Of a DNA stretch of 64,000 nt, positions 8,859-61,475 are shown one piece after another (the stretch's first letter is position 1; each line of letters starts with the position of its first letter). The notes below the pieces were generated by a model. The model had not been told where the DNA came from, ran no database searches, and saw only the letters and a program-made list of their open reading frames with translations. Both the position numbers and the translations under genes were made by a program. The stretch is from Callorhinchus milii (Eukaryota): contig NW_024704742.1 in NCBI RefSeq assembly GCF_018977255.1, forward strand, positions 100,938,001 through 101,002,000. Direction: 5' to 3'.

Positions 8859-9179
8859 GGAGTCCTGTAGCTCAGTGGTTAGAGCACTCGCTTTGCAAGT
8901 GAGAGACCTGAGTTCAATTCCCGGCAGGGCGAAACCTTGGGCAAGTTTCCTTACTCCACACAGAGCCTAATAATAAACCCTCCAAAAAAAAACAATAATA
9001 AATTGGTCATTTTCAATCTACGACTGTTTGTGGGACATTGCTGTGCGCAATTGTCTGCCGCGTTCGCCCACAAATATACAGTTAATTCACTTTACAGTGT
9101 GTTCTGTGAAGCACTTTGGGACGTCCTCCTGACGTGAAAAGCACTATATTAAATGCAAGGATTATTATTATTATTATTA
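8859..9179 (+). mobile_element. tRNA(Ala)-like SINE, short subtype, full length
   Basis: Near-identical to 717-1044; intact A box (TAGCTCAGTGG) and B box (GAGTTCAATTCC); (ATT)n tail. Confidence 0.95.
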
Positions 9180-30797: not shown

Positions 30798-31185
30798 AAT
30801 AATAATAATAATACTTGCATTTGATATAGCGACTTATCACATCTTTGAGACATTTCAAAGCACTTCACGGAATATACTGCAAAGTGAAACACCAAATACT
30901 GCAGATGTTGGAAATCTGAAAACAAAAACAGAAGTTGCTGGGAACACTCAGAAGGTCAGAACTGAGTTTGAGTTCTGATAAAGGGTCATGGACCTGAAAC
31001 GTTCACTCACTTTCCTTTCTCCATAGATGCTGCCTGACCTGCTGAGTGTTCCCATTGTCTTCTGTTTTTGTTATACTGTAAAGTGAATTGATTGTATATT
31101 TTGTGGGTGAAATGCGGAAGCCAATTGTGCACAGCAGTGTCCCATAAACAGTCGTGGACTGAGTGATCGATTTTGTTATTATTAT
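30798..31185 (-). mobile_element. tRNA-Ala SINE 3' half (older tail type) hosting a PLE insertion
   Basis: (AAT)n, reverse-complement tail, Deu-type body; interrupted at 30889-31071. Confidence 0.9.
30889..31071 (+). mobile_element. Penelope-like non-autonomous insert (inverted tail + pLTR) with a minimal hammerhead ribozyme motif
   Basis: 16-bp duplication TATACTG(C/T)AAAGTGAA at 30873-30888 and 31072-31087; inverted arms CAAAAACAGAAG..GGGAACACTCAG / CTGAGTGTTCCC..CTTCTGTTTTTG; core AGTT-CTGATAA-AGGGTC-ATG-GACCT-GAAAC-GTT at 30971-31003. Confidence 0.8.
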
Positions 31186-31290
31186 TTTTGCAACATTCAC
31201 TGTGAGTTGTTATCAGATATTATTGTTTCAAACAGTATCTATGCAGAACTGATAGATAAGGATATCAAGGAATATGGAGCAAAGGCAGCT

Positions 31291-33735
31291 ACAACAACAA
31301 CAAAAACACGATTATATTTGTACAGCGCCTTTCATGTCGGGAGGACGTCCCAAGACGCTGGACAGTGTACAGCATTTCAGACCCGAGCTGGGGTCAGGGG
31401 TGGTGAAGGGAGGGGAGGGGAAGTGGGATGGCCGATGGCATGGTCGAAGAGGAGGGTCTGGAGGCGGGACTTGAAGGAGGCTAAGAAGGGGACGAGGCGG
31501 AGTGATTGGGGGATGGAATTCCGGAGGCTGGAGGAAGAGTGGCTGAAGGCTCTCCCACCAATGGTGGGGCAGGTGGGTCGGGGGACGTGGAGCAGGCCAG
31601 AGCCGGCTGAACGGAGGGAACAGTTCGGTTGGTAGGAGGTCGCAGAGGTAGGGTGGAGTGAGGCCATGGAGGGCTTTGTAGGTGAGGACCAGGATCTTGA
31701 ACTGGATCCTCTGAAGGATAGGGAGCCAATGGAGTTGGGCGAGAGTGGGGGAGATGGGGTCACAAAGTTTGGTGTGGGAGAGGACACGGGCTGCAGAGCT
31801 CTGGAATATCTGCAGCCTGTGGAGGGAGGAGTTGAGAAGGCCGACAAGCAGGGCGTTTGCATAGTCGAGCCTGGAGGTGATGAAGGCATGAACAAGAGTT
31901 TCAGTGGCCTGAGGGGTGAGGTAGAGGCGGAGTTGGTCGATGTTACGGAGGTGAGGGAAGGCAGAGTGGGTCATGGCTTGAATGTGGGGCAGAAAAGACA
32001 GTTGAGGGTTGAACAAGACACCTAGGTTCCTGACTGGTTTGGTGAGTTGTAGTGTGCAACCATGGAGGTTGATGCTGCCAGAGCCTGAGGTGCTGAGGCG
32101 CTGGCGTGAGCCAATCAGGAGGACCTCAGTCTTGTTCACATTCAACTGTAGGAAATTTGCCCTCATCCAGGACTTGATGTCCGACAGGCAGTCTGTCAGG
32201 ACAGCAGTGGTATTGGAGTTGAGGGTGGAGGCAGAAAGATAGAGTTGGGTGTCATCCGCATACATGTGGAAGTTGACCCCATGTCTGCGGATGATACCAA
32301 CGGGGGAGCATGTAGATATTAAAGAGGAGAGGGCCAAGGACAGAGCCCAGATGTTTAGAATGTTATTGGTGACTTTGACCAGGGCTGTTTCCGTGCTGTG
32401 GGCAACGCGGAAGTCGGATTGGAAGGGTTCAAAGAGGAAATGGCGAAAAAGAAAGGAGTGGAGCTGGGACCTGACGACTCATTCCAGGACCTTCGAGAGA
32501 ATGGGAGATTAGAGATGGGGTGGTAGCTGGAGAGGAGGGATGGATCCAGGGAAGGTGTTTGCAAGATGGGGGTGATAACGGCTGTTTTTAGGGGGGTGGG
32601 AACTGAACCGGTGGACAAGGAGAGGTTGATGACATCAGACAGAAGAGGGGCCAGAAGGTGGAGCTGGGAGATGAGGAGAGAGGTGGGGATGGGATCAATG
32701 CAGCAGACAGTGGGTTTGAGTTTGCGGACAGTCATGGGGAGGGAGGAGGGAGATATAGGGTCTATGGAGTATAGGGGGTGATGGTTGGGGGGTGGGTCAT
32801 GAGGGAGATGTGATGTGGGGGTGGCTGTGGATGGGGCTGAGGTGGCTGAACGTTTCCCCTCGATTTTAAATTCAAGAAAGTCCAGCATCTCCTCACAGTT
32901 GGAGTTTGAGGAGAGGACGGACGAGGTATGGGAAGGTGGATGGAGAAGTTGGTTTGTGGTGGAAAAGAGAAGCCTGGGGTTGTCCTTTGCCTTCAAAGTA
33001 ACCTTGGAGTAGAAGGAGGATTTGGCGGAGGCAAGAGCGCAGCGGTAGGTCTTGATGTAGTGAAGCCAAATCTGCCGATGGACCGTTAGTTTGGATTTAG
33101 TCCAGGCACTTTTGGCAGCTCGCACTTGTGCCTTGAGGGAACGGAAATGGCCCAAAGGAAATGGGGGATTTATGGGAGTATGAGGCAGTTCGGTAGGTGA
33201 GGGGGAAAGGAAGTCCAGAATGGAGGAGAGGGAGTTGTGGAGAACGAGAAGTGTGGAGGGGAGCTCGGTTAGTGAGGGGCATAGGTGTAGGAGTTCAGAT
33301 GAACTCCAGGGCAGTGGAGAGGGAGAGTGAGGAAATTTTTTCCATGGATGGTATGTAATGGTGGAGGGTTGGGAAAGAGGAAGGGGTACTGAGGTGTTGA
33401 GGGAGATGCAGTGGTGGTCCAAGATGGCTTTATCGACGATGGTGATGTCCGAGACGGTGAGGCCCCGGGTGATCACCAGATCAAGGGGGTGGCCATGGTC
33501 GTGGGTGATGGAGTAGATGAGGAGGGAGAGGTTAAGGTAAGAGAGGAGGGAGGAGAAGTCGTCAGAGATAGAGCAGGAGGGGGTGAAGTGGAGGTTGAAG
33601 TCGCCTAAGGTAAGGAGGCGTTTAGAGCAGATGGAGAGGGAAGATAGGCGGGTGGAGATGTCCAAGAGGAATGTGGGGGAAAGCTTGGGGGAACAGTAAA
33701 CAAGTAGGGTTTTGAAGGATAGCCTGGATTGGTGG
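31291..33735 (-). mobile_element. L2 subfamily 1, 5'-truncated, APE and RT remnants
   Basis: 'LGDFNLH', 'THDHGHPLDLVITRGL', 'LDHHCI', 'YADDTQLYLS', 'LVHAFITSRLDYANALL'; internal deletion near 32350; paralogous to 333-3349. Confidence 0.94.
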
Positions 33736-33738
33736 TAT

Positions 33739-34683
33739 AGCGCTTCACATAAACGGATCCTGGGGCCGAGCCACGGGGAGGGGGAGGAAGACGACCAAAG
33801 GCGTGGTCAATAGGAAAGATCTTCAGCCGAGACCTGAAAGTGGGAAGAGAGGGGGCGAGGCAAAGGGAGTGAGGAATGGAGTTCCAGAGCCTTGGGGCAT
33901 AGTGGCTGAAGGCACGGCCAATAGTGGTAGAGCGGAGGACTCGGGGTAAGGGGAGGAGGCCAGAGCGAAGGCAACGGGTACTGTTGTGAGGAGAGAGGAG
34001 GTCAGAGAGGTGGGGGTGCAGAGGAGTGGAGGGATTTGAATAAAGGTGAGGATCTTGAAGTCGATCCTCTCTGGGACAGGCAGCCAGTGTAGTCTGGCAA
34101 GGACTGGGGTAATCGGGGAGTGGAGTTTGGTGCGGGTAAGAATGTGGACGGCAGAGTTTTGGATGACCTGGATTTTGTGAATGGTAGTGGAGGGGAGACC
34201 GGTGAGGAGGGCATTTGAATAGTCCAGCCGAGAGGTGACAAAGGCACGGACAAGATTTTAGCGGCTTTTGGAGTGAGGTATTGTCGGAGACGGGTGATGC
34301 GTTGAAGAATGGAAGAAAGCGGTGCTGGTGAGGGACTGGATGTGGGGGAGGAAGGATAATTGGGGGTCGAACCTGACGTCTAGGTTGTGTACGGATTCGG
34401 AGAGTTTTAGGAGCAGGTCGGGTAGGTGGAGGAGGTGAGGACCGTGAGATTTTAGACATTGACGAGAGCCAAAGAGTATGGCTTCCGTCTTGTCAACGTT
34501 CAGCTGAAGGAAACTCAAGTTCATCCAGCCCCTGAGATTTGACAGGCAGGTTGACAGAACATCAGTGGACTGGTGGTCGCAAAGAGAGGTGGAAAAATAG
34601 AGTTGGGTGTCGTCCGCGTACATGTGGAAATGTACCCCATGGCTTCAGATGACATCCCCAAGAGAGAACGTGTAGATCAGAAA
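33739..34683 (-). mobile_element. L2 subfamily 2 3' fragment lacking its terminal repeat
   Basis: 'MYADDTQLYFSTSLCD..FLQLNVDKTEAILFGS' and '[15 protein letters not shown]'; closely matches ~16310-17260. Confidence 0.92.
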
Positions 34684-34893
34684 GGTAAATGGAGTTGAGT
34701 TACAGATCAGCCATGATCTAACAGAAAGGAGGAACAGGCTTGAGGATCTGAATGGCCTATGTCCCGATGATTGCTGAGACATAAAACTGAAAGGATGAAT
34801 TCTGGATTTGAATACATTTACCTGGATCTGTGGAAGGAACTGGCTTGATGGGCTGAGTGCCTTTTTCTCGTTCTGTGCTTTCGTATGTTCTTG
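34684..34893 (+). mobile_element. CR1 3' UTR fragments
   Basis: CAGATCAGCCATGATCT...GGAACAGGCTTGAGG..CTGAATGGCCTA and GGCTTGATGGGCTGA..GCC...TTCGTATGTTCTT. Confidence 0.75.
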
Positions 34894-35451
34894 AAACACA
34901 GTAAGTGAATAATGTACCAAACAGTCACAGACTTTAATTAAATGCACTTTTATCCAGATGTACTCCATCAATTCTCGAAGCATATTTGCAAATGTTGAAA
35001 ATACTGTTTTGAATGAAATAATCACAAATCACACTAAACTAAAATAAGAATGTTGAATCCAACTGCAGTTTCAAATTAAACAAAGCCTCAATAAACCTTA
35101 ATGTGTAAATAATCCAGGAATTGATGCCATTTTCTTGCACTGCTAAACCAGCCTTCATACCCTATCCTATAATGATCATAAAAGACAGAGGTGGGTCATG
35201 CAAGATAAAAGAAAGTTTAATGAATATAAATCTTGATCTGGCATAAGGATTCAATAGGTCAGAATTTGCTGTGATTAATGATGGAAATGGAGCCAAATCT
35301 TACCTTTGAAAGCTTCAATGCAAATTAATTTGTTATTTTCTGCTGGAAATACTGAAGTTTGGTTAATTTCATTGAACTTAAGGCAATGTCACAGCAGAAA
35401 GTGTAGAGGGTATCATTTTATAAGCTGAAGTGTCTGTCTGGGAAAGAAACC

Positions 35452-35823
35452 AATAATAATAATAATAAATAATCCTTGCATTTGATATATCAGATCTTCG
35501 AGATGTCTCAAAGCACTTCATAGAATATACTGTAAAGTAAATTGACTGTATATTTTGTGGGTGAAATACAGCAGCCAATTGCACACAGCAGTGTCCCACA
35601 AACAGTCATGGATTGAGTGACCAAATTATTATTTCTTTTAAGAGTTTATTACCCCCAGGAAAGCGATCCACCAATTGACTAACAACCGGGTTCATACTTA
35701 CTGGTAAGTAAATAGAGGAGTGTGGAGTAAGGAAACTTGCCCAATGTTTTGCCTGCTCGGGAATCGAATCCAGGTCCTCTCAATTGCGAGATGAGTGCTC
35801 CAACCACTGAGCTACAGGACTCC
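35452..35823 (-). mobile_element. tRNA-Ala SINE, long subtype, full length
   Basis: Head ends at 35823; carries an extra central segment (CCTCTATTTACTTACCAGTAAGTATGAACCCGGTTG...) absent from the short subtype. Confidence 0.92.
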
Positions 35824-38039
35824 ACCAATGTCACTCTGAGCCTGTAGTAACTATCTTGGGACAACTGCACCTGGGGATTAAACATGTGTTATTTGGGAAG
35901 CTGTTCAGGGCCTGAAGCTTCTGCCCAGGGGAAATTGTTAACATTATCTAAGGCCACGTCTCAGTATGTTCACATCTCAGATTTATTTTTACTAATTTGC
36001 ATGTTGCCAGCTGTTTTGGGGGCATCTGCCAGATCTTGCTGGAAGACTTCATGATCTTGAGTAAGCAAGTCTTATATAAAAAGTTTGTTTAAACAACTTT
36101 TGTGATATTCTTAATATCTTCCAATGCAAGACATAAAAATTAATGCTGGCATTCAATAGTGCTGAGAGTATGGCATATTTCCACAATTCAGCAATATACT
36201 CCGTTTTCACCCACAAAATACACAGTTAATCCACTTTACAGTATATCCTGTGAAGCGCTTCGAGTCATCTAAATGACATGATAAGGCCCTATATCAAATA
36301 CAACAATTATTATTATATATGTTTAAACATTTTGTGGAAAATTGGCTTCCAAAATCAGCTTCCAAAATTCTGCACAATCCTAAATTCTAAGACAATGATC
36401 TTACAGCTAAGACCTTATAAAATGTTGGATTTTTGGACTGAGCATTTTCTTCTGGGAGAGAGGAAGAGAAATATCTCACTTAATAATAATAATAATAATC
36501 CTTGCATTTGATATAGCGCTTTTCACGTCGGGAGTCACGTCACTTCCCCTATACCCAGATGACACAGTTACCAGAAAGCAGGCAAATTGATCTCAAAATG
36601 GTCTTTATAATAATGCTGAAATTGAACTAGGTAAAATCATGCAGTTTATGAAAGACTTCTATTGCTTGTCTATCTAAAGCTTGTGGGATTGGGACCAGTG
36701 AATATACTCTCAACAAATTATTAGGTGGCAGGTATGTATGACCCCAAAACAATGCCTTATTTCATTATCCCAACTTTGTCGAAGGCACAACACAGTTATA
36801 TGACTACGGTTAATGTTTTTCCTCCCTTATCTTTGCCCTCCCCAATCCCCTTAGTTCTCAATCCCAGTTGGGTGCCCAGCCGGCATTGTTAAGCACTTTG
36901 TAATGTCCTCCTGACACGAAAGGTTCTATATAAGTAACTCTTAGATGCTTTTTTTCATGAAGGGCACTATATAAATATAAGTTGTTGTTCTTGTAAATTA
37001 TTGCAAAAAATGAGTTTTTTTAATAAAAATCTGTTCTAGGTTATTAAATCTATTAGTTATTATTCAGAATACTAATTTTTCTATTGCAAATTTGGACTGT
37101 AATCTTTCATCTACACTGAAAACAGCAGTGGACAAGGTGATAAACCAAAGAAAAATCATTACCCTTTTACAATCCTATTGGTTATAATCGAAACCACCAG
37201 TGGATGTGTTACAGACAGGATGTGCAACACTATTTCATGAAGGTGACCAGAAGGACAGGTGTATTGTGTTATGTTTGTTTCTCTTCACTTGGCAGATGCT
37301 TTAACCTTTTCTTCAGGGAGTTTCAGTGGAACCCTTTTCTCATTTAGGTTATCATTAGGCACACACAAGACACAGCCTCACAGATCAAATGAGCAGCTTA
37401 AAAACCAATGTGTTTTTCTATCCTTAATGCTGCCTCCAGGAATTTCTGAAAGGATAATTACTGTGCTCCCTGATAAACACATGCTGCAGCTGGTGTCTGC
37501 ATTATAACATTTCTAATAATGGTTGCATTAGAAGGATATATGCCCTGAAGCTTTTCAAATGTGTGACTGCTGGATGTGCAGAATATGTAATGAGGGTTAA
37601 TAGAGTTAGAAATTGTTGAGTTTCACACACAGGAGACACAAGCAGTTGGATGGTTGTACTCTCTGAACAGTGTTTGAGGTTAGCGTTTATCTGTACATTC
37701 CTTTGCTTAATCATAATTGACACATTCCTAAATAAAACTTTTTATTTCTTCCTTTATTTGCTTCACTGGCAACAATTGCAATTTTCTTATGGTTATGTGA
37801 AAATCTGGACATGCAAACTGCGTGGGTTAGATAAGCACACCAGGTGAGTGATATCATCTCTGTACAGAGGGAGGTTATTTGCTGTCAGTTTTCGATGGTG
37901 CAGAGAAAATTCAGTGTCTCAGGGCTGTGTTACTAATAGATGGTGCTGTTTTGTGTGTGATTAAGCCAATCTGCGGGATGACTCAAACTATTGAGTAATT
38001 CTTTGTTGATTACTGGGAAATCCAGGAATTTTGTATCTG

Positions 38040-38420
38040 AATTTAAGTTTTGCCTTAAAGTGTAGTGACTGAGTATTTTGTAAGTGGGTGCGGCAGCTAA
38101 TTTTTACAGCAATGTCCACCAAACAGCCATGAAGTGAATAACTAAATTAATCTGTGCGATTGTTAGCAAGGACACCGGGAGAAGCTCCTTTACTTTTCGA
38201 GTAGTGCCATGGGATCTTTAATGGCCACCTGAACAGGCACAGATGGAATTTCAATTGGATGTCTCATTCAAAGGAGAATACATTCAAAAATACAGTCCAC
38301 CCTAGCATTGCATTGGAGTGTTGGCCTAGACTATATGAATTCAAAGACCCAATGTGGGGCTTGAACTCACAATGTTGTGACTTAGAGGCAAGATTGCTAC
38401 CAGCTGCACCAAGTTGTCAC
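38040..38420 (-). mobile_element. Old Deu/SacSINE1-like SINE
   Basis: AGTGCCATGGGATCTTTAATGGCCACCTGAACAGGCA...TCTCATTCAAAGG...GGGCTTGAACTC. Confidence 0.75.
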
Positions 38421-38449
38421 AATATCTTCCTCTTACTTACTAATCCTAG

Positions 38450-39052
38450 TGTAAGCTGCCAAAGCTGCAAAATGGAAAACCATCAAGATGAAAACCATTG
38501 AGTCGAATGACCTCAGGACATGCATAGACCAACTTGCAAGGAAAAGACAATGTCTAACACCAACTTGCTATAACAAAAGGCTAGGCGTTAACTCGATCAA
38601 ACACAATGAACTGACTGAAACTGGACTCAAGAAATGCATCAAACACCATGAACTGACTAAAACTGGATTCAGGACACTTCGAGTCCAGGGCAAAAAAAAC
38701 AAGTTCTTGTATGGTCAATAAAAGACTCAAAAATAATTAGTGGAGGATGGAAGGTAAAAGGGGCTACAAAAACTTGAGTGAGCAGCGGCAGGGGAGAGAT
38801 CGTGGCTGTGGCAGAGGAGCGACCTACCTAAGCTAAGAACTACAAGCAACATCAATAAGTGGTTACTCGTATATTCAGGTCTTTCAGGTTAAGAATCTTG
38901 ATTGAACCGAGCCCTGAATCATCTTCCGTGTTCTATAACTGTTGTAACCATCATTTTGGTAAGCAATAAATGATATCTGGTTTACTGTATTTTGTCTCTG
39001 ATCAAATACCTTACCTCAGGGTGAACAATTGGAACGGGTTGACGGATAAACA
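38450..39052 (+). mobile_element. Probable solo LTR (~600 bp)
   Basis: TGTAAG...AAACA termini; internal ~42-bp tandem duplication (AAACACAATGAACTGACTGAAACTGGACTCA); AATAAA near 38966 followed by a GT-rich tract. No clean TSD. Confidence 0.6.
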
Positions 39053-39139
39053 CCATCGGCATAAAACTCTGCATTAGACCATAGCAAAAGACTTTCCCAA
39101 TTGAACAGACACAATTCAATGCATGCTTTACTTGTATCC

Positions 39140-39450
39140 TCTGTGGTATTAGTTTTAATATAATTAGGTTTTAAGTCCCATGTTGGGATCTCAACTCATA
39201 GTCTAGGGGTGACATTCAAAAGCACTACTGGGGAGAACTGCACTATTGGAGTTCATTAAATTGAGATCCTGTCTGTGTGTTTAGGTGGATGTCAAATATC
39301 CTATAATGCAATACAAAAAGACAAACTTTTTTTGTGTGGTGTCTCTTTGCCAACAATTCTTCAGATTAATTGTTAATTCTCCTTGTGGCTGTTTGTGAAA
39401 TCTTTGATGCAGTAAATGACTCCTGAGTTTGCCACAAAAACAGTCACTAC
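39140..39450 (+). mobile_element. Old Deu/SacSINE1-like SINE
   Basis: AGGTTTTAAGTCCCA...TGACATTC...TTAGGTGGATGTCAAA...GCTGTTTGTG. Confidence 0.6.
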
Positions 39451-41151
39451 ACAAACATCACAAGAAAGGTTCTGATGATAAATTCTTTTTGGCTACTTAA
39501 TCTAATTTTTCCATAATTACTGTTTTCCTATTGCAGCATTGATCTGTGACTTAAATAAGCTCAGCCTCCTTGCCTCTACCACCTTTTCTAGGAACCTGAT
39601 TACCCTCTGAAGAAATATTTCCTGGTGTGTGTCCTAAAATTGCACCTCACAACCATGAACCTATTAATTCTTGTCCCACTGTCTTGGCATGTTTGAAAGT
39701 ATTTTTCTTAGTTTATTTTCTTTGTCCCATTTATATATGCCAGTACTAACTTATTCTTCCTTATAATAAATTCTAATAATAATCCTTCCTTTTCTTTCCT
39801 TCCTCCTTTCCTTCATCCATTCTTTTTTACTGGACTGTCAGGAAATACTGTATATTTAAGAGAAGACTTGATGCATACATGGGGGAAAAGGGAAGAAAAG
39901 GGCATAAAAGAAGGGTGGGGGCTTGTGTGGAGTATAAACACTAACATGAACTACTTGGGCTGAATGATCACACAGTTACTCTATGTAACCGGATCAATGT
40001 TTCAATGTTACCATTAGTGAATGTAACTGGAGGCACAGTAAAAGCACAACATGAGTGAGAGAATAATTATTCATGTAATAATAATCATCCTTGCATTTGA
40101 TATAACGCCTTATCACGCTATTGAGATGTCTCAAAGCATTTTAGGATATGTTGTAAAGTATAGTGACTATATAAACTACTGTAATAGTAGGGAAAAGAAC
40201 ATTCACAAGGTGGAGTGATTATAGATGCAGAACAAGCTACCGCTCATCTTTAATCTCCTTTTACATTTACCCGATGTTTACCATTCCTGTCTATGAGGTA
40301 TAGCCCTTTTTATTATATTTATTATATTCAGCTCTTTCTGACATTAACATATCAGAAAGCTGGCACCATTACTAATCTCTATAGACAGACATGCAATCAT
40401 TTGATCAAAAGAAACAGGCTTTTACTCAGAATAAGCTCCTGCGGTGACTTCCCTTAAAGTGACAGTTTTTTTTATTTAAGGGCTAGTGTTTATGTTCCAC
40501 GTGAGACCCACAATGTATAACTTCTGTTATTTTCTCCCTTTAGTGTATATTTCAATTTGTCACACAAGATATTAAAGAATAATTTTAATTGTCTTTAATA
40601 ATCCATATTTAAAATAATGTATCAAGCAGTAGAAATTACTCTGTTTAATTAAGAGATATGTGCACTTAGTGAAGTACAGATGTCACATAAAATTACATTG
40701 AACTTTACAGCACAGAATCAGGCCAACTAGTCTGTAATAGTGTTGATATTCCTTGGGAGCCTCTATACCTCCAATTACCATCTCCTATATCCTTCTATTC
40801 CCTTCTCACTAATCTGCTAATGGCTATTATATGTATGTACCCTTGTTTTGGTTTCACCATCCTAGCAAATCTAAGACTGATTCAATCCAATGTTACAATA
40901 TTCCTCCTGTTATCAGCAACACAGAACTATTAGAGAGAAATTTCACCTAGATCTGGATTTATTCTATTCACATAACATTTCAAGACATCCAGAATTTGGT
41001 AAGTTGTGGAATTTAGTCTTAACTGTGAAGTTAATTTTCTGTAGCTCTTAAAGGCTTCAAAATTAAGTTTGTATTAAGAATTTGCCCAATTGTGGATGCT
41101 CTGTCAGGTTAGAGGGCAACCATGGGGATCACAACATAGCCATAATCCTCT

Positions 41152-41697
41152 AGTTCTGTGGTTAGAGCACTCGCCTCGCAAGCGAGAGACCTGGGTTCAA
41201 TTCCCGGCAGGGAGAAACGTTGCGCAAGTTTCCTTACTCCACACGCCTCTGTTTATCTAGCTGTAAGTCAATTGGCGGATGGCTTTTCCGGGGGTAATAA
41301 TTCCTTCTAAATAAATAAATAAGTTGGTCACTCAATCCACGACTGTTTGTGGGACTCTGCTGTGAGTAATTGGTTGCCGCGTTTCATCCATAACATATAC
41401 AGTCAATTCACTTTACAGTATAAACAAAACGCAAAATACTGCAGATGCTGGAAATCTGAAAACCCAATATCCCCTGTCCTCTACCCCATTTTCTCCTTTG
41501 TCTTCCTAGGCCTACCTCCCCCCTCTCTGTTAGCCCTTAAAAGCCTCTCCCTCCCAACATGCCCCCAGTTCTGACGAAGCGTCATGGACCCAAAACTTGA
41601 CTCACTTTCCTTTCTCCATAGATGCTGCCTGACCTGCTGAGTGTTCCCGGTGACTTCTGTTTTGTTTTCACTTTACAGTATATTCTGTGAAGTGCTC
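41152..41697 (+). mobile_element. tRNA-Ala SINE, long subtype, hosting a PLE insertion
   Basis: GTTAGAGCACTCGCCTCGCAAGCGAGAGACCTGGGTTCAATTCCCGGCAGGG head, long central segment; interrupted at 41423-41666; 3' tail missing. Confidence 0.9.
41423..41666 (+). mobile_element. Penelope-like insert with a hammerhead motif (GAAA mutated to AAAA)
   Basis: Perfect 16-bp duplication TTCACTTTACAGTATA at 41407-41422 and 41667-41682; AAATACTGCAGATGCTGGAAATCTGAA inverted tail; CAGTT-CTGACGA-AGCGTCATGGACCC-AAAAC-TTGACT at 41566-41602. Confidence 0.8.
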
Positions 41698-41844: not shown

Positions 41845-42164
41845 ATAATAATAATAATAATCCTTGCATTTGATATAGCGCTTTTCACGTTGGGAGGATG
41901 TCCCAAAGTGCTTCACAGAACACACTGTAAAGTGAATTGACTGTATACTTGTGGGCGAACGTGGCAGCCAATTGTGCACAGCAATGTCCCACAAACAGTC
42001 GTAGATTGAAAATGACCAATTTAATTATCGTTTTTGGTTTTTGGAGGGATTATTATCAGGCGTTTGGAGTAAGGAAACTTGCCCAAGGTTTCGTCCTGCC
42101 TGGAATTGAACTCAGGTCTCTCACTTGCAAAGCGAGTGCTCTAACCACTGAGCTACAGGACTCC
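41845..42164 (-). mobile_element. tRNA-Ala SINE, short subtype, full length
   Basis: Reverse complement matches 717-1044 and 8859-9179 throughout. Confidence 0.95.
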
Positions 42165-50834: not shown

Positions 50835-51715
50835 ACAATACATAGATTTACATGGAATGGTACAGCATGAGAAAAAAAAAGATTCAGCCCAACTAATCTG
50901 TGTCAGTAGTCACTGAGAACACTCAGCAAGTCAGGAAGGATCTCTGGAGAAAGGAAAGTGAGTCAACATTTTGAGTTCACTACCCTTCGTCAGAACTGGG
51001 GCATGTTGGGAGAGATACGCTTGTAAGGGATAACAGAAAGGATTGCCTCCCCCCTTTTTTGCTTCAGATTTCCAGCAACTGAAATATTTTGCATTTAAAC
51101 TGTGTCAGTGTTTATACTTTATATGAGCCTCAATCCCTTCAATTATTCTCTTCTATGCCCCCTTGATTCCCTTCTCCCTCAAGTGTGCATGATGCTTTTG
51201 TTCTCAAAACAGTCATGATATTTGATGTAACCACACTCTCACCACCCTCTGCATGAAGAAGTTTCTTCTAAACTCCCTGTTAGATCTTATATTTATGCAC
51301 TCTAGTTTTGTAAATGCAAGGCAGTTGTTTTTGGTATCCTGACCAATAATGTACAGATAAAATTGATCATTCATTTTATGGGTGTTTATGGGACATTGCT
51401 GTTTGCAAATTGGTTGCCCTGTTTGCCCACAAATAAATGCAAGTTGGTATTGTGATTTTGCACTCTCCAACAAGTGTAAACAGCCTATCAACATCCACTT
51501 TATCCAATGCTTTCATCATCTTAAACACCGTTGTTGAGCCCACTCTCAATTGTCTTAACTCTAAAGAGAAAAGTTGCAACCTGGCCAATCTTTCTTGAGA
51601 GCTTTATCCACTCACAAATGATAATATTCTTGTAAATCTGCACTGTGCTCTGTCTGATGCTATAACATATTTTCTGTAATGTGTCCACCAGAAGTCTGTA
51701 TAGCACTCCACAAAC
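50835..51715 (-). mobile_element. CR1 3' fragment, with nested PLE and SINE pieces
   Basis: 'REFRRNFFMQRVVRVW' and 'RLQLFSLELRQLR..VFKMMKALDKVDVDRLF'; tail CATAGATTTACATGGAATGGTACAGC. Confidence 0.85.
50908..51099 (-). mobile_element. Penelope-like insert with a degraded hammerhead motif, nested in the CR1 3' UTR
   Basis: 10-bp duplication CTGTGTCAGT (50898-50907, 51100-51109); reverse-complement core CAGTT-CTGACGA-AGGGTAGTGAACTC-AAAAT-GTTGACT; same inverted-tail architecture as the other copies. Confidence 0.75.
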
Positions 51716-61180: not shown

Positions 61181-61475
61181 AATAATATTTGATAGTGCTT
61201 TTCACGTCTTTGAGATGTCTCAAAGCACTTCACAGAATATACTGTAAAATGAATTGACTGTATATTTGTGGGCGAAACTTGGCAACCGATTGCACAAGGC
61301 AGTGGCCCACAAACAGTCGTGGACTGAGTGACCAAATTATTATTGTTTTATTCCTGAGGGATTATTGTCAGACATGTGGAGTAAGGAAACTTGCCCAAGG
61401 ATTTGCCCTGCCGGGAATCAAACCCAGGTCTCTTGCTTGAGAGACGAGTGCTCTAACCACTGAGCTGCAGGACTC
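61181..61475 (-). mobile_element. tRNA-Ala SINE, full length
   Basis: Head reverse complement GAGTCCTGCAGCTCAGTGGTTAGAGCACTCG; older-type tail; lacks the long central segment. Confidence 0.9.

Follow-up and report, generated by a model that had tools for sequence, protein, structure and literature searches.

A Penelope-like retrotransposon with an insertion hotspot in an abundant SINE of Callorhinchus milii

The window, a 64,000-nucleotide stretch of Callorhinchus milii contig NW_024704742.1 (positions 100,938,001 to 101,002,000), contains two SINE copies that are each interrupted by an insert of the same family (Table 1). Insert A (183 bp, 30889-31071) and insert B (244 bp, 41423-41666) occupy the same 16-mer of these two different SINE copies, and in each case the target is duplicated, with one mismatch around insert A and perfectly around insert B. 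The SINE that hosts insert A lies on the minus strand, is 5'-truncated and retains its (ATT)n tail. The host of insert B lies on the plus strand and has a tRNA-like head (Rfam tRNA match at 41151-41207, 40.1 bits); its match to other SINE copies ends after about 41697. Since A and B run in the same direction on the plus strand, their orientations relative to the SINE are opposite. Uninterrupted SINE copies within the window contain the 16-mer only once, so A and B arose by genuine insertion and duplicated their target. A third member of the family lies in non-SINE DNA and is flanked by a 10-bp duplication. The same-site double insertion proposed by the sequence-only reading is borne out by these coordinates, and by junctions that recur genome-wide far above expectation.

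Table 1. Features of the two occupied SINE copies and of the third copy (window coordinates)
Feature	Position	Strand	Description
SINE copy A, 3' part	30798..30888	-	(ATT)n tail 30798-30812; ends in first target copy TATACTGCAAAGTGAA (30873-30888); matches other window SINE copies
Insert A, inverted arm	30889..30960	-	antisense PLE 3' end, reference about -34 to +37; the optional tail is mostly included
Insert A, filler	30961-30970		10 nt between the two arms
Insert A, direct arm	30971..31071	+	last ~100 nt of PLE, ending in 'short' 3' end; starts at 5' edge of degenerate min-hammerhead motif (30971-31010, core CTGATAA)
SINE copy A, body, 5'-truncated	31072..31185	-	begins with second target copy TATACTGTAAAGTGAA (31072-31087)
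SINE copy B, tRNA-like head and body	41152..41422	+	ends in first target copy TTCACTTTACAGTATA (41407-41422)
Insert B, inverted arm	41423..41461	-	antisense copy of the ~39-nt optional PLE tail only
Insert B, direct arm	41462..41666	+	last ~200 nt of PLE 3' UTR/pLTR, up to the short 3' end; holds a degenerate min-hammerhead motif (41567-41605, AAAAC in place of GAAAC)
Second target copy and SINE B remnant	41667..41697	+	target TTCACTTTACAGTATA (41667-41682), then short SINE piece
Third PLE copy, two-armed (inverted tail and direct arm)	50908..51099	-	outside any SINE; flanks ACTGACACAG at 51109-51100 and 50907-50898; degenerate motif at 50997-50958

The 3' region of the insert family runs upstream into an open reading frame. 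At locus L004 this frame, as judged by eye, ends ...VVYCICCSRCGLYIGETKHRLGD(stop)FAEHL..., with a GIY-YIG-like part that is preceded by a CxxCxxC motif (CRRCNTC). A further upstream part of the frame (L003:2364-2858, minus strand) has 52 homologues at E<=0.001, the best of which are elasmobranch proteins with 64-66% identity. Nearly all of these homologues carry PF26215, several carry PF00078 (RVT_1) together with PF28514, and four carry PF01541 (GIY-YIG). The reverse transcriptase (RT) and GIY-YIG domains are read from the precomputed annotations of relatives, and the 1.5-kb flanks around this genome's own copies stop short of the catalytic RT part; a Pfam search for GIY-YIG in the one broken L004 frame, in halves or whole with X at the stop, returned no family. 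This combination agrees with the earlier assignment of the inserts to a real Penelope-like element (PLE) family. Judged by their sequence, inserts A and B are defunct remnants, truncated at the 5' end, of a Penelope-like retrotransposon that probably carries an endonuclease.

In each window insert, a 3' fragment in inverted position bears the optional ~39-nt tail and is followed by a direct arm. Relative to a natural reference copy (the window being locus L061), the inverted arm of insert A, an internal inverted repeat, corresponds to block -184 to -112 on the minus strand, and that of insert B to block -246 to -205 on the minus strand (reference +3 to +44). The same two-armed structure is found in 24 of 37 copies at the SINE site. 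The tail is present on about half of 65 unselected 3' ends, a sample made of the first 65 places as 150-270-bp pieces that cover 3' ends but neither 5' ends nor duplications. Window copy B has its tail, inverted, at the 5' border; in most genomic copies the tail segment is inverted and lies downstream of the element 3' end. Target duplications vary in length, as is usual for PLEs, from 9-14 bp at 12 insertions away from the SINE site to 14-16 bp at the site. PMC8557442 describes inverted 5'-truncated copies that have a tail at one end as typical of PLEs, and 5' truncation, such inverted copies and an optional 30-40-bp tail at one end are all found here. This arm anatomy matches the published PLE signature of cleavage and extension of both strands. 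Both orientations relative to the SINE are indeed seen, but they mean less than the sequence-only reading assumed because most inserts carry the element 3' end at both borders.

The inserts had also been described as hammerhead-bearing. All three window copies do carry a CUGANGA...GAAAC motif, yet each has mutations in the core, which ends ...AAAAT in the third. Across 72 copies the motif AGUU-CUGACGA-A-GGGUC-NNN-GACCC-GAA-ACGU-U/GACU is intact in seven, with CTGANGA in 37 and GAAAC in 34. The minimum free energy fold of L004:1600-1650 forms helices I and II, but with z = 0.10. Rfam reports no hammerhead in the window at the gathering threshold, none in copy B or the L004 3' region at E<=10 and none in 20 loci at E<=1. 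Published minimal hammerheads (min-HHRs) lack helix III, and the missing helix may explain why Rfam overlooks the motif. Unlike the min-HHRs of metazoan PLE pLTRs (Cervera and de la Pena 2014, PMC4209133), the motif here has no Rfam match and is rarely whole. A small group of arm ends, at -61 to -66, falls where the cut is predicted (-65), which is at most an indirect hint of self-cleavage. The hammerhead is a call at the level of the motif only.

How often does the element enter the SINE at this position? With up to three mismatches allowed, the genome contains 146 junctions in one orientation and 35 in the other, while reversed-pattern controls gave 1 and 0. Exact patterns gave 29 and 10, with controls of 0. 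From 6708 element 3' ends (a 30-mer with up to two mismatches), 181,977 SINE sites and 991.5 Mb of sequence, random insertion would yield 0.62 junctions per orientation; the observed numbers, which cover chosen registers and the short-end junction only, correspond to an enrichment of ~60-240-fold, depending on orientation. At the second AATT site of the same SINE (CAAT^TGGCTGC), a comparable exact pattern found no junction as opposed to 29. The pattern GACTTCTGTTTT N{0,5} TATACTGTAAAGTG gave no matches; most junctions of that orientation begin with ATACTG or TACTG, and the corrected pattern gave the 10. PLE insertions also occur in the (ATT)n tails of SINEs. Locus L054 was considered as the same target outside a SINE, and was set aside since its left flank, by eye, is a short SINE remnant and so offers no independent evidence. 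The SINE 16-mer is a genuine recurrent target of this PLE in both orientations, as the sequence-only reading had proposed, and the counts lie far above the background expected from SINE copy number.

The strength of this preference is a separate matter. The hotspot accounts for (146+35)/6708, or ~2.7%, of the countable 3' ends of the family. Among the 65 unselected 3' ends, none is certainly at the hotspot and one (L113) possibly is; the 29 top-scoring long copies include none. Strict targeting as in R2, where most copies sit at one target sequence, is therefore not what we observe. Insertions away from the SINE site carry unrelated 9-14-bp duplications with no clear motif, which indicates that the specificity of the endonuclease is loose. 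A strong endonuclease preference for the SINE motif is supported just in part: the hotspot is recurrent, but takes only ~3% of 3' ends. To say that the element parasitises a SINE overstates the case. The site is a hotspot with a quantitative preference and not an exclusive target.

We consider it probable that A and B are dead, 5'-truncated PLE copies that arose by nicking and priming on both strands at this non-exclusive hotspot. The PLE ribonucleoprotein would nick both SINE strands at CAAT^TCAC...CAGTAT^ATTC with a stagger of 14-16 bp, each nick apparently falling just 5' of an ATT. Both 3'-OH ends would then prime reverse transcription near the RNA's 3' end, at either of two internal start sites that yield the 'short' end or the ~39-nt 'tail'. 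Head-to-head joining of the two cDNAs would leave an inverted and a direct 3' fragment, in that order, within the target duplication. Since both strands are primed, the product may sit either way round at one site, and since the genome offers at least 182,000 copies of the SINE, insertions would strike the hotspot repeatedly. Priming on both strands is suggested by the arm anatomy together with published in vitro work on an Anolis PLE. The nick positions are deduced from the junctions. The commonest A-type junction, ...TTTTTG|ATACTG, has no letters common to both sides of the joint, which would put the nick of the top strand at GTAT^ATTC. On the bottom strand its position is ambiguous, since element and target have TTCA/TTTCA in common at the joint; because of this overlap the duplication may span as few as 11 bp, and microhomology could help to select the site.

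This microhomology raises the possibility that priming, rather than cutting, selects the site. The nicked strand end ...GTGAA-3' could anneal to the UUCA with which the RNA tail begins, so that breaks at this position are converted more efficiently without any special affinity of the endonuclease. The shared TTCA/TTTCA occurs at the commoner junction, the orientation that contains it is about fourfold more frequent (146 vs 35), and 4 of 32 unselected short-end junctions follow ...TGTTT(T)CA, three of these four continuing with C. On the other hand, the other orientation and the opposite border use the same site without microhomology (...TTTTTG|ATACTG), and a four-base pairing is far too common genome-wide to single out one site. 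The overall similarity between tail and target is not significant: the best local alignment is just CAGTAT.TT, equalled by 1452 of 5000 shuffles, and we also rejected homing of the ribonucleoprotein through mimicry by the RNA tail on this basis. We regard priming as an improbable source of the preference, though one that deserves some weight, and infer that the endonuclease sets it. A more specific proposal is that the PLE protein, probably as a dimer, recognises a partly palindromic sequence of about 20 bp, AAT|TCACTTTACAGTAT|ATT, and cleaves each strand just 5' of ATT, the two cuts being staggered by 14 bp. We put this forward tentatively and think it rather less likely than not to be correct in full. 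The palindromy is modest (7 of 10 pairs), is equalled by 293 of 20,000 composition-preserving shuffles, and concerns a site picked post hoc.

A second alternative derives the copies of each orientation from a single ancestral SINE+PLE composite that multiplied as a SINE subfamily, its palindromic insert being trimmed afterwards in a different way from copy to copy. Loci L048 and L050 are indeed unrelated, yet their SINE copies contain one and the same rearranged insert (only 353 bp in common, at 89% identity); at least this one composite was copied as a unit, so that a small part of the recurrence is amplification. Breakpoints also cluster near the palindrome centre, as expected of secondary deletions, and 9 of 37 site copies have no recognisable left SINE part, like 5'-truncated retrocopies of a composite. 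Nevertheless, the arms break at different points in 25 of 26 further B-type loci, several copies have much longer arms (direct arms of 201-442 nt), and the occupied SINE copies vary in their own truncations. SINE flanks vary to the same extent in occupied and unoccupied copies (0.840 vs 0.845, permutation p 0.33, sample of 18), a comparison that alone cannot rule out an old composite master, for which reason we relied on variants of the target itself. Ten private variants, in 9 of 23 loci, are common to both target copies of a locus; shuffled pairings gave a mean of 1.6, and none of 20,000 reached 10. These variants indicate that the target was duplicated in situ, in SINE copies that had already diverged. 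By arithmetic on the same data, ~2.8% of SINE divergence precedes insertion and ~4.2% follows it. Furthermore, the two-armed insert contains T5 runs on both strands. Such runs should terminate Pol III, in this case before the SINE tail is reached. We judge a general composite origin very unlikely, and the independence of A and B, as claimed from the sequence, is upheld. Finally, a coincidence of two unrelated insertions at one SINE position could appeal to the rarity of the draw, two of three copies in one window at a site used by only ~3% of 3' ends, but the 146 + 35 junctions against ~1.2 expected, with reversed controls of 1 and 0, leave this explanation practically no chance.

The preferred reading, priming on both strands at a SINE hotspot, resembles twin priming by L1, in which both nicked strands prime cDNA and one target duplication encloses an inverted 5' and a direct 3' segment. 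In L1 an internal stretch of the same RNA supplies the inverted segment. In the present inserts, by contrast, both arms start in the 3' end region of the element and overlap in content, which implies that the 3' end was copied twice. The closest biochemical parallel is the Poseidon PLE of Anolis carolinensis (PAc), which in vitro cuts both DNA strands, with a preference for 5'-ATT-3', extends both, and initiates reverse transcription at two internal sites that bound a 30-40-bp tail (Frangieh et al. 2024, PMC11167929). The present family shares with PAc the optional tail between two start sites and a min-hammerhead motif ~90-130 nt upstream of them, and probably the RT and GIY-YIG class, the use of both strands and the ATT preference. 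Unlike the main text on PAc, which describes neither a sequence hotspot nor a SINE target, we find a defined 14-16-bp site used in both orientations, known here from sequence alone. Insertion bias, complex tandem or inverted insertions and a tail at one end also characterise Neptune, Nematis, Naiad and Chlamys PLEs, whose bias is attributed to the endonuclease or to a Zn-finger-like CX2-5CxxC linker by Craig et al. 2021 (PMC8557442); CRRCNTC parallels this linker. According to the same text, these elements favour simple repeats ((TA)n, (CA)n, (C)n), where duplications are unreadable, whereas the target here is a unique, partly palindromic SINE sequence with readable duplications. Supplements aside, we found no report in the literature of a PLE hotspot inside a SINE. 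The element is not a new kind, but a PLE with a hotspot in an abundant SINE.

Among the major mechanisms of retrotransposition, the integration of PLEs is understood least, and the PAc in vitro system, the only one that we found, now has an in vivo counterpart. Hundreds of independent events at one readable site in a vertebrate genome of ~1 Gb provide a natural, base-precise PLE target. According to the junctions one nick falls just 5' of ATT and, less certainly, so does the other; they also point to priming by both strands and to the use of both RT start sites. The target requirements of the endonuclease are now directly testable with a 40-bp oligonucleotide. If dimer recognition holds, AAT|TCACTTTACAGTAT|ATT would be the first natural recognition site outside repeats to be resolved to the base for the endonuclease of a vertebrate PLE, and the SINE, with at least 182,000 copies, would be a genomic 'safe harbour' that shapes PLE accumulation. 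An abundant SINE can serve as a sink for another retroelement, in this genome a minor one.

Both inserts interrupt copies of a single tRNA-derived SINE with an (ATT)n tail. SINE copy A lies on the minus strand and is 5'-truncated; SINE copy B lies on the plus strand, carries a tRNA-like head, and loses similarity to other SINE copies after about position 41697. Self-comparison of the window identified more than 12 further copies of this SINE that contain the 16-mer only once. Inserts A and B are therefore true insertions with target-site duplications. Reading of both regions and scripted motif positions confirmed the anatomy described in the sequence-only reading. Every Rfam tRNA match in the window is the head of the same SINE family, and none is a tRNA gene.

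Inserts of the Penelope-like element (PLE) and SINE-head matches in the window
Feature	Position	Length	Strand	Flanks or basis
Insert A	30889-31071	183 bp		TATACTGCAAAGTGAA (30873-30888) and TATACTGTAAAGTGAA (31072-31087); motifs located by script
Insert B	41423-41666	244 bp		two perfect TTCACTTTACAGTATA copies (41407-41422 and 41667-41682); motifs located by script
Third PLE copy	51099-50908		minus	non-SINE DNA, between two ACTGACACAG copies
Head of SINE copy B	41151-41207		plus	Rfam tRNA
Other SINE heads	8861-8932, 42091-42162, 61403-61474, 719-789, 35752-35818			Rfam tRNA

A search of the genome (991.5 Mb on 1762 contigs; the window is C1:100938001-101002000) with insert B as query returned 4315 first-look candidates. 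In other copies, positions 39-241 of insert B extend upstream into a much longer element, and positions 1-39 are usually found downstream of position 241 in the opposite orientation. This usual placement shows two forms of the canonical 3' end, a "short" one (...GACTTCTGTTTTTGTT) and one lengthened by a "tail" of about 39 nt, which is present in about half of the 3' ends in an unselected sample of 65 copies. Insert B consists of the inverted tail alone, joined to about 205 nt of direct, 5'-truncated sequence that finishes in a short end. In insert A, an inverted stretch of about 70 nt from the 3' end, including most of the tail, is followed by 10 nt of filler and a direct copy of about 100 nt. 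The outer borders of both inserts are element 3' ends on both sides, and the third copy in the window has the same two-armed build. In one further copy (L037) a run of 25 N falls within the insert; two-armed PLE copies may assemble poorly, a point made in the literature.

Passages of Craig et al. (2021, PMC8557442) describe typical PLE copies as 5'-truncated, adjoined by an inverted 5'-truncated copy, and tailed at one end only. The Poseidon element of Anolis uses two adjacent internal reverse transcription start sites, the spacing of which corresponds to an optional 30-40-bp tail of the genomic copies (Frangieh et al. 2024, PMC11167929). Set against these descriptions, as far as the passages of the former go, the anatomy of the inserts is canonical. 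The inserted element proves to be an ordinary PLE, and its two-armed insertions are of the canonical kind. Two long copies (L003 and L004) have an ORF lying upstream of their 3' region. The L004 version runs ...CRRCNTC...VVYCICCSRCGLYIGETKHRLGD, a stop, and FAEHL..., and finishes at a natural stop about 420 nt short of the 3' end. Inspected by eye, it resembles a GIY-YIG-type C-terminus after a CxxCxxC motif. Pfam assigned no family to this part, whether its halves were tested separately or the stop was replaced by X. For the ORF segment lying further upstream (L003:2364-2858:-), 52 homologues score E<=0.001; uncharacterised elasmobranch proteins with 64-66% identity rank highest. PF26215 occurs on nearly all of the 52, PF00078 (RVT_1) and PF28514 on several, and PF01541 (GIY-YIG) on four. 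We take the family to be an endonuclease-bearing PLE.

The description of the inserts as hammerhead-bearing holds only at the level of the motif. The family contains the motif AGUU-CUGACGA-A-GGGUC-NNN-GACCC-GAA-ACGU-U/GACU, with a predicted cut at ...GAAACGUU/GACU (position -65). However, Rfam hammerhead models gave no match at any threshold tried, the whole motif is intact in only 7 of 72 copies, and all three window copies carry core mutations. The local fold of the motif is no better than that of shuffled sequences (z = 0.10). A functional hammerhead is thus weakly indicated. In copies at the SINE site (L032-L071 and L075-L090), short-arm 5' ends concentrate between -93 and -101, counted from the GACTTCTGTTTT end, at the 5' edge of the hammerhead motif. 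Fewer lie at -61 to -66, in a second cluster that coincides with the predicted cut. These clusters suggest discrete template 5' ends or a preferred point of template jumping; the smaller one hints at cleaved templates, although it proves nothing.

The 3' junctions of the window copies, used as queries, recovered the same joint at 26 further loci in the orientation of insert B relative to the SINE (B-type) and at 9 further loci in that of insert A (A-type). Whole-genome pattern counts were each paired with a reversed-pattern control. The abundance of the SINE-site 28-mer alone makes this SINE a major component of the genome.

Whole-genome pattern counts with reversed-pattern controls
Pattern	Count	Control
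Element 3' end, 30-mer, <=2 mismatches	6708	0
GACTTCTGTTTT, exact	4925	412
SINE site, 28-mer, <=3 mismatches	181,977	0
B-type junction, exact	29	0
A-type junction, exact	10	0
B-type junction, commonest register, <=3 mismatches	146	1
A-type junction, two registers, <=3 mismatches	35	0

Random insertion would yield 6708 x 181,977 / 991.5 Mb / 2, or about 0.62 junctions per orientation. The 146 B-type and 35 A-type junctions exceed this value roughly 240-fold and 57-fold, which bears out the proposed recurrence at the same 16-mer in both orientations. A second AATT site in the same SINE (CAAT^TGGCTGC..., CAATTGGCTGC) showed no joints, as compared to 29 at the hotspot with a comparably strict pattern. 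The proposal of a strong preference is partly supported by this excess, but the hotspot accounts for only (146+35)/6708, or about 2.7%, of countable 3' ends. Among 65 unselected ends (the first 65 places of the 30-mer listing, chosen solely by the element's own 30-mer) the B-type joint is absent, and a single end (L113) may be a degenerate A-type case. Nor does any of the 29 other long copies with top scores occupy the site, and 12 other insertions with readable borders have unrelated target duplications of 9-14 bp. The duplication at L002 is longer or more complex than the usual 9-16 bp; past the PLE 3' end, its right flank carries a tandem repeat of about 24 bp, imperfect and overlapping (tatcacagacattagttgagttta...), and a related stretch lies in the left flank. 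The literature searched (main text and passages) contained no report of a PLE hotspot inside a SINE.

SINE (ATT)n tails were struck about 7 times in 94 copies that were not selected by flank (L005, L009, L010, L023, L024, L110, L153), well above the genome share of such tails. This fits the 5'-ATT-3' cleavage preference published for the Anolis Poseidon protein (PMC11167929). L079, too, sits in or at such a tail. A bias of PLEs toward microsatellites, possibly via a CX2-5CxxC linker, is mentioned in the passages of Craig et al. (2021, PMC8557442).

The two window inserts had been read as independent events rather than one amplified composite, and the genomic copies agree with one exception. 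Of the 26 further B-type loci, 25 have arm breakpoints of their own, as does every one of the 9 further A-type loci. Direct arms at the site measure 25 to 442 nt, and the occupied SINE copies vary in their own 5' truncations. Right flanks of 18 occupied SINE copies are as diverse as those of 41 unoccupied copies (mean pairwise identity 0.840 versus 0.845, permutation p 0.33). Among 23 loci with both target copies, the same non-consensus base occurs in both at 10 positions in 9 loci; shuffled pairing gave 1.6 on average and 7 at most, with none of 20,000 shuffles reaching 10. These private variants show that the duplications were formed on the spot, after the SINE copies had acquired mutations. 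The balance of shared and unshared variants suggests SINE divergence of about 2.8% before insertion and about 4.2% after.

The exception is a pair of unrelated loci, L048 (C1:85.72 Mb) and L050 (C1:86.47 Mb), with the same rearranged SINE and insert (353 bp in common, 89% identity). This likeness indicates at least one event in which a composite was copied whole. The SINE in L050 is more 5'-truncated than that in L048. Two pairs of 3-kb loci on different contigs, L013/L015 and L072/L073, are identical over their full length to 99.3% and 100%, which points to recent segmental duplication or to contig redundancy in the assembly. At C12:194662-194903, two A-type junctions on opposite strands face each other 214 bp apart, so that the two flanks correspond to one and the same side of the SINE site, inverted. 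A fold-back of insert and target would fit this locus better than a direct duplication.

In the commonest A-type joint (...TTTTTG|ATACTG...), element and target have no letters in common, and the top-strand nick can be placed at GTAT^ATTC. TTCA/TTTCA occurs in both element and target at the joint most frequent for the B-type (...TTTTTGTT|TCAC...), which leaves that joint ambiguous. If the canonical short end ...TGTT was used, the bottom-strand nick would be at GTGA^ATTG, and both nicks would fall just 5' of ATT, 14 bp apart. The surrounding 20-mer AATTCACTTTACAGTATATT shows partial palindromy (7 of 10 pairs, equalled by 293 of 20,000 shuffles).

The site preference may stem from cutting or from priming. 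Microhomology between TTCA and the PLE RNA could favour priming at the SINE site, in line with the 4:1 orientation bias, but the opposite border and the A-type joints lack such microhomology, and the overall similarity between tail and target lacks significance (1452 of 5000 shuffles reach its score). We infer instead that the endonuclease attacks the SINE site symmetrically, probably as a dimer, and that both 3'-OH ends act as primers. Attack and priming on both strands would lead to use of one site in both orientations. Purified Anolis Poseidon protein indeed cleaves and extends both DNA strands (PMC11167929). The SINE site is a real hotspot for this PLE, with many independent insertions in two orientations; the preference is quantitative, and as the target of a few per cent of insertions the site is a minor sink.
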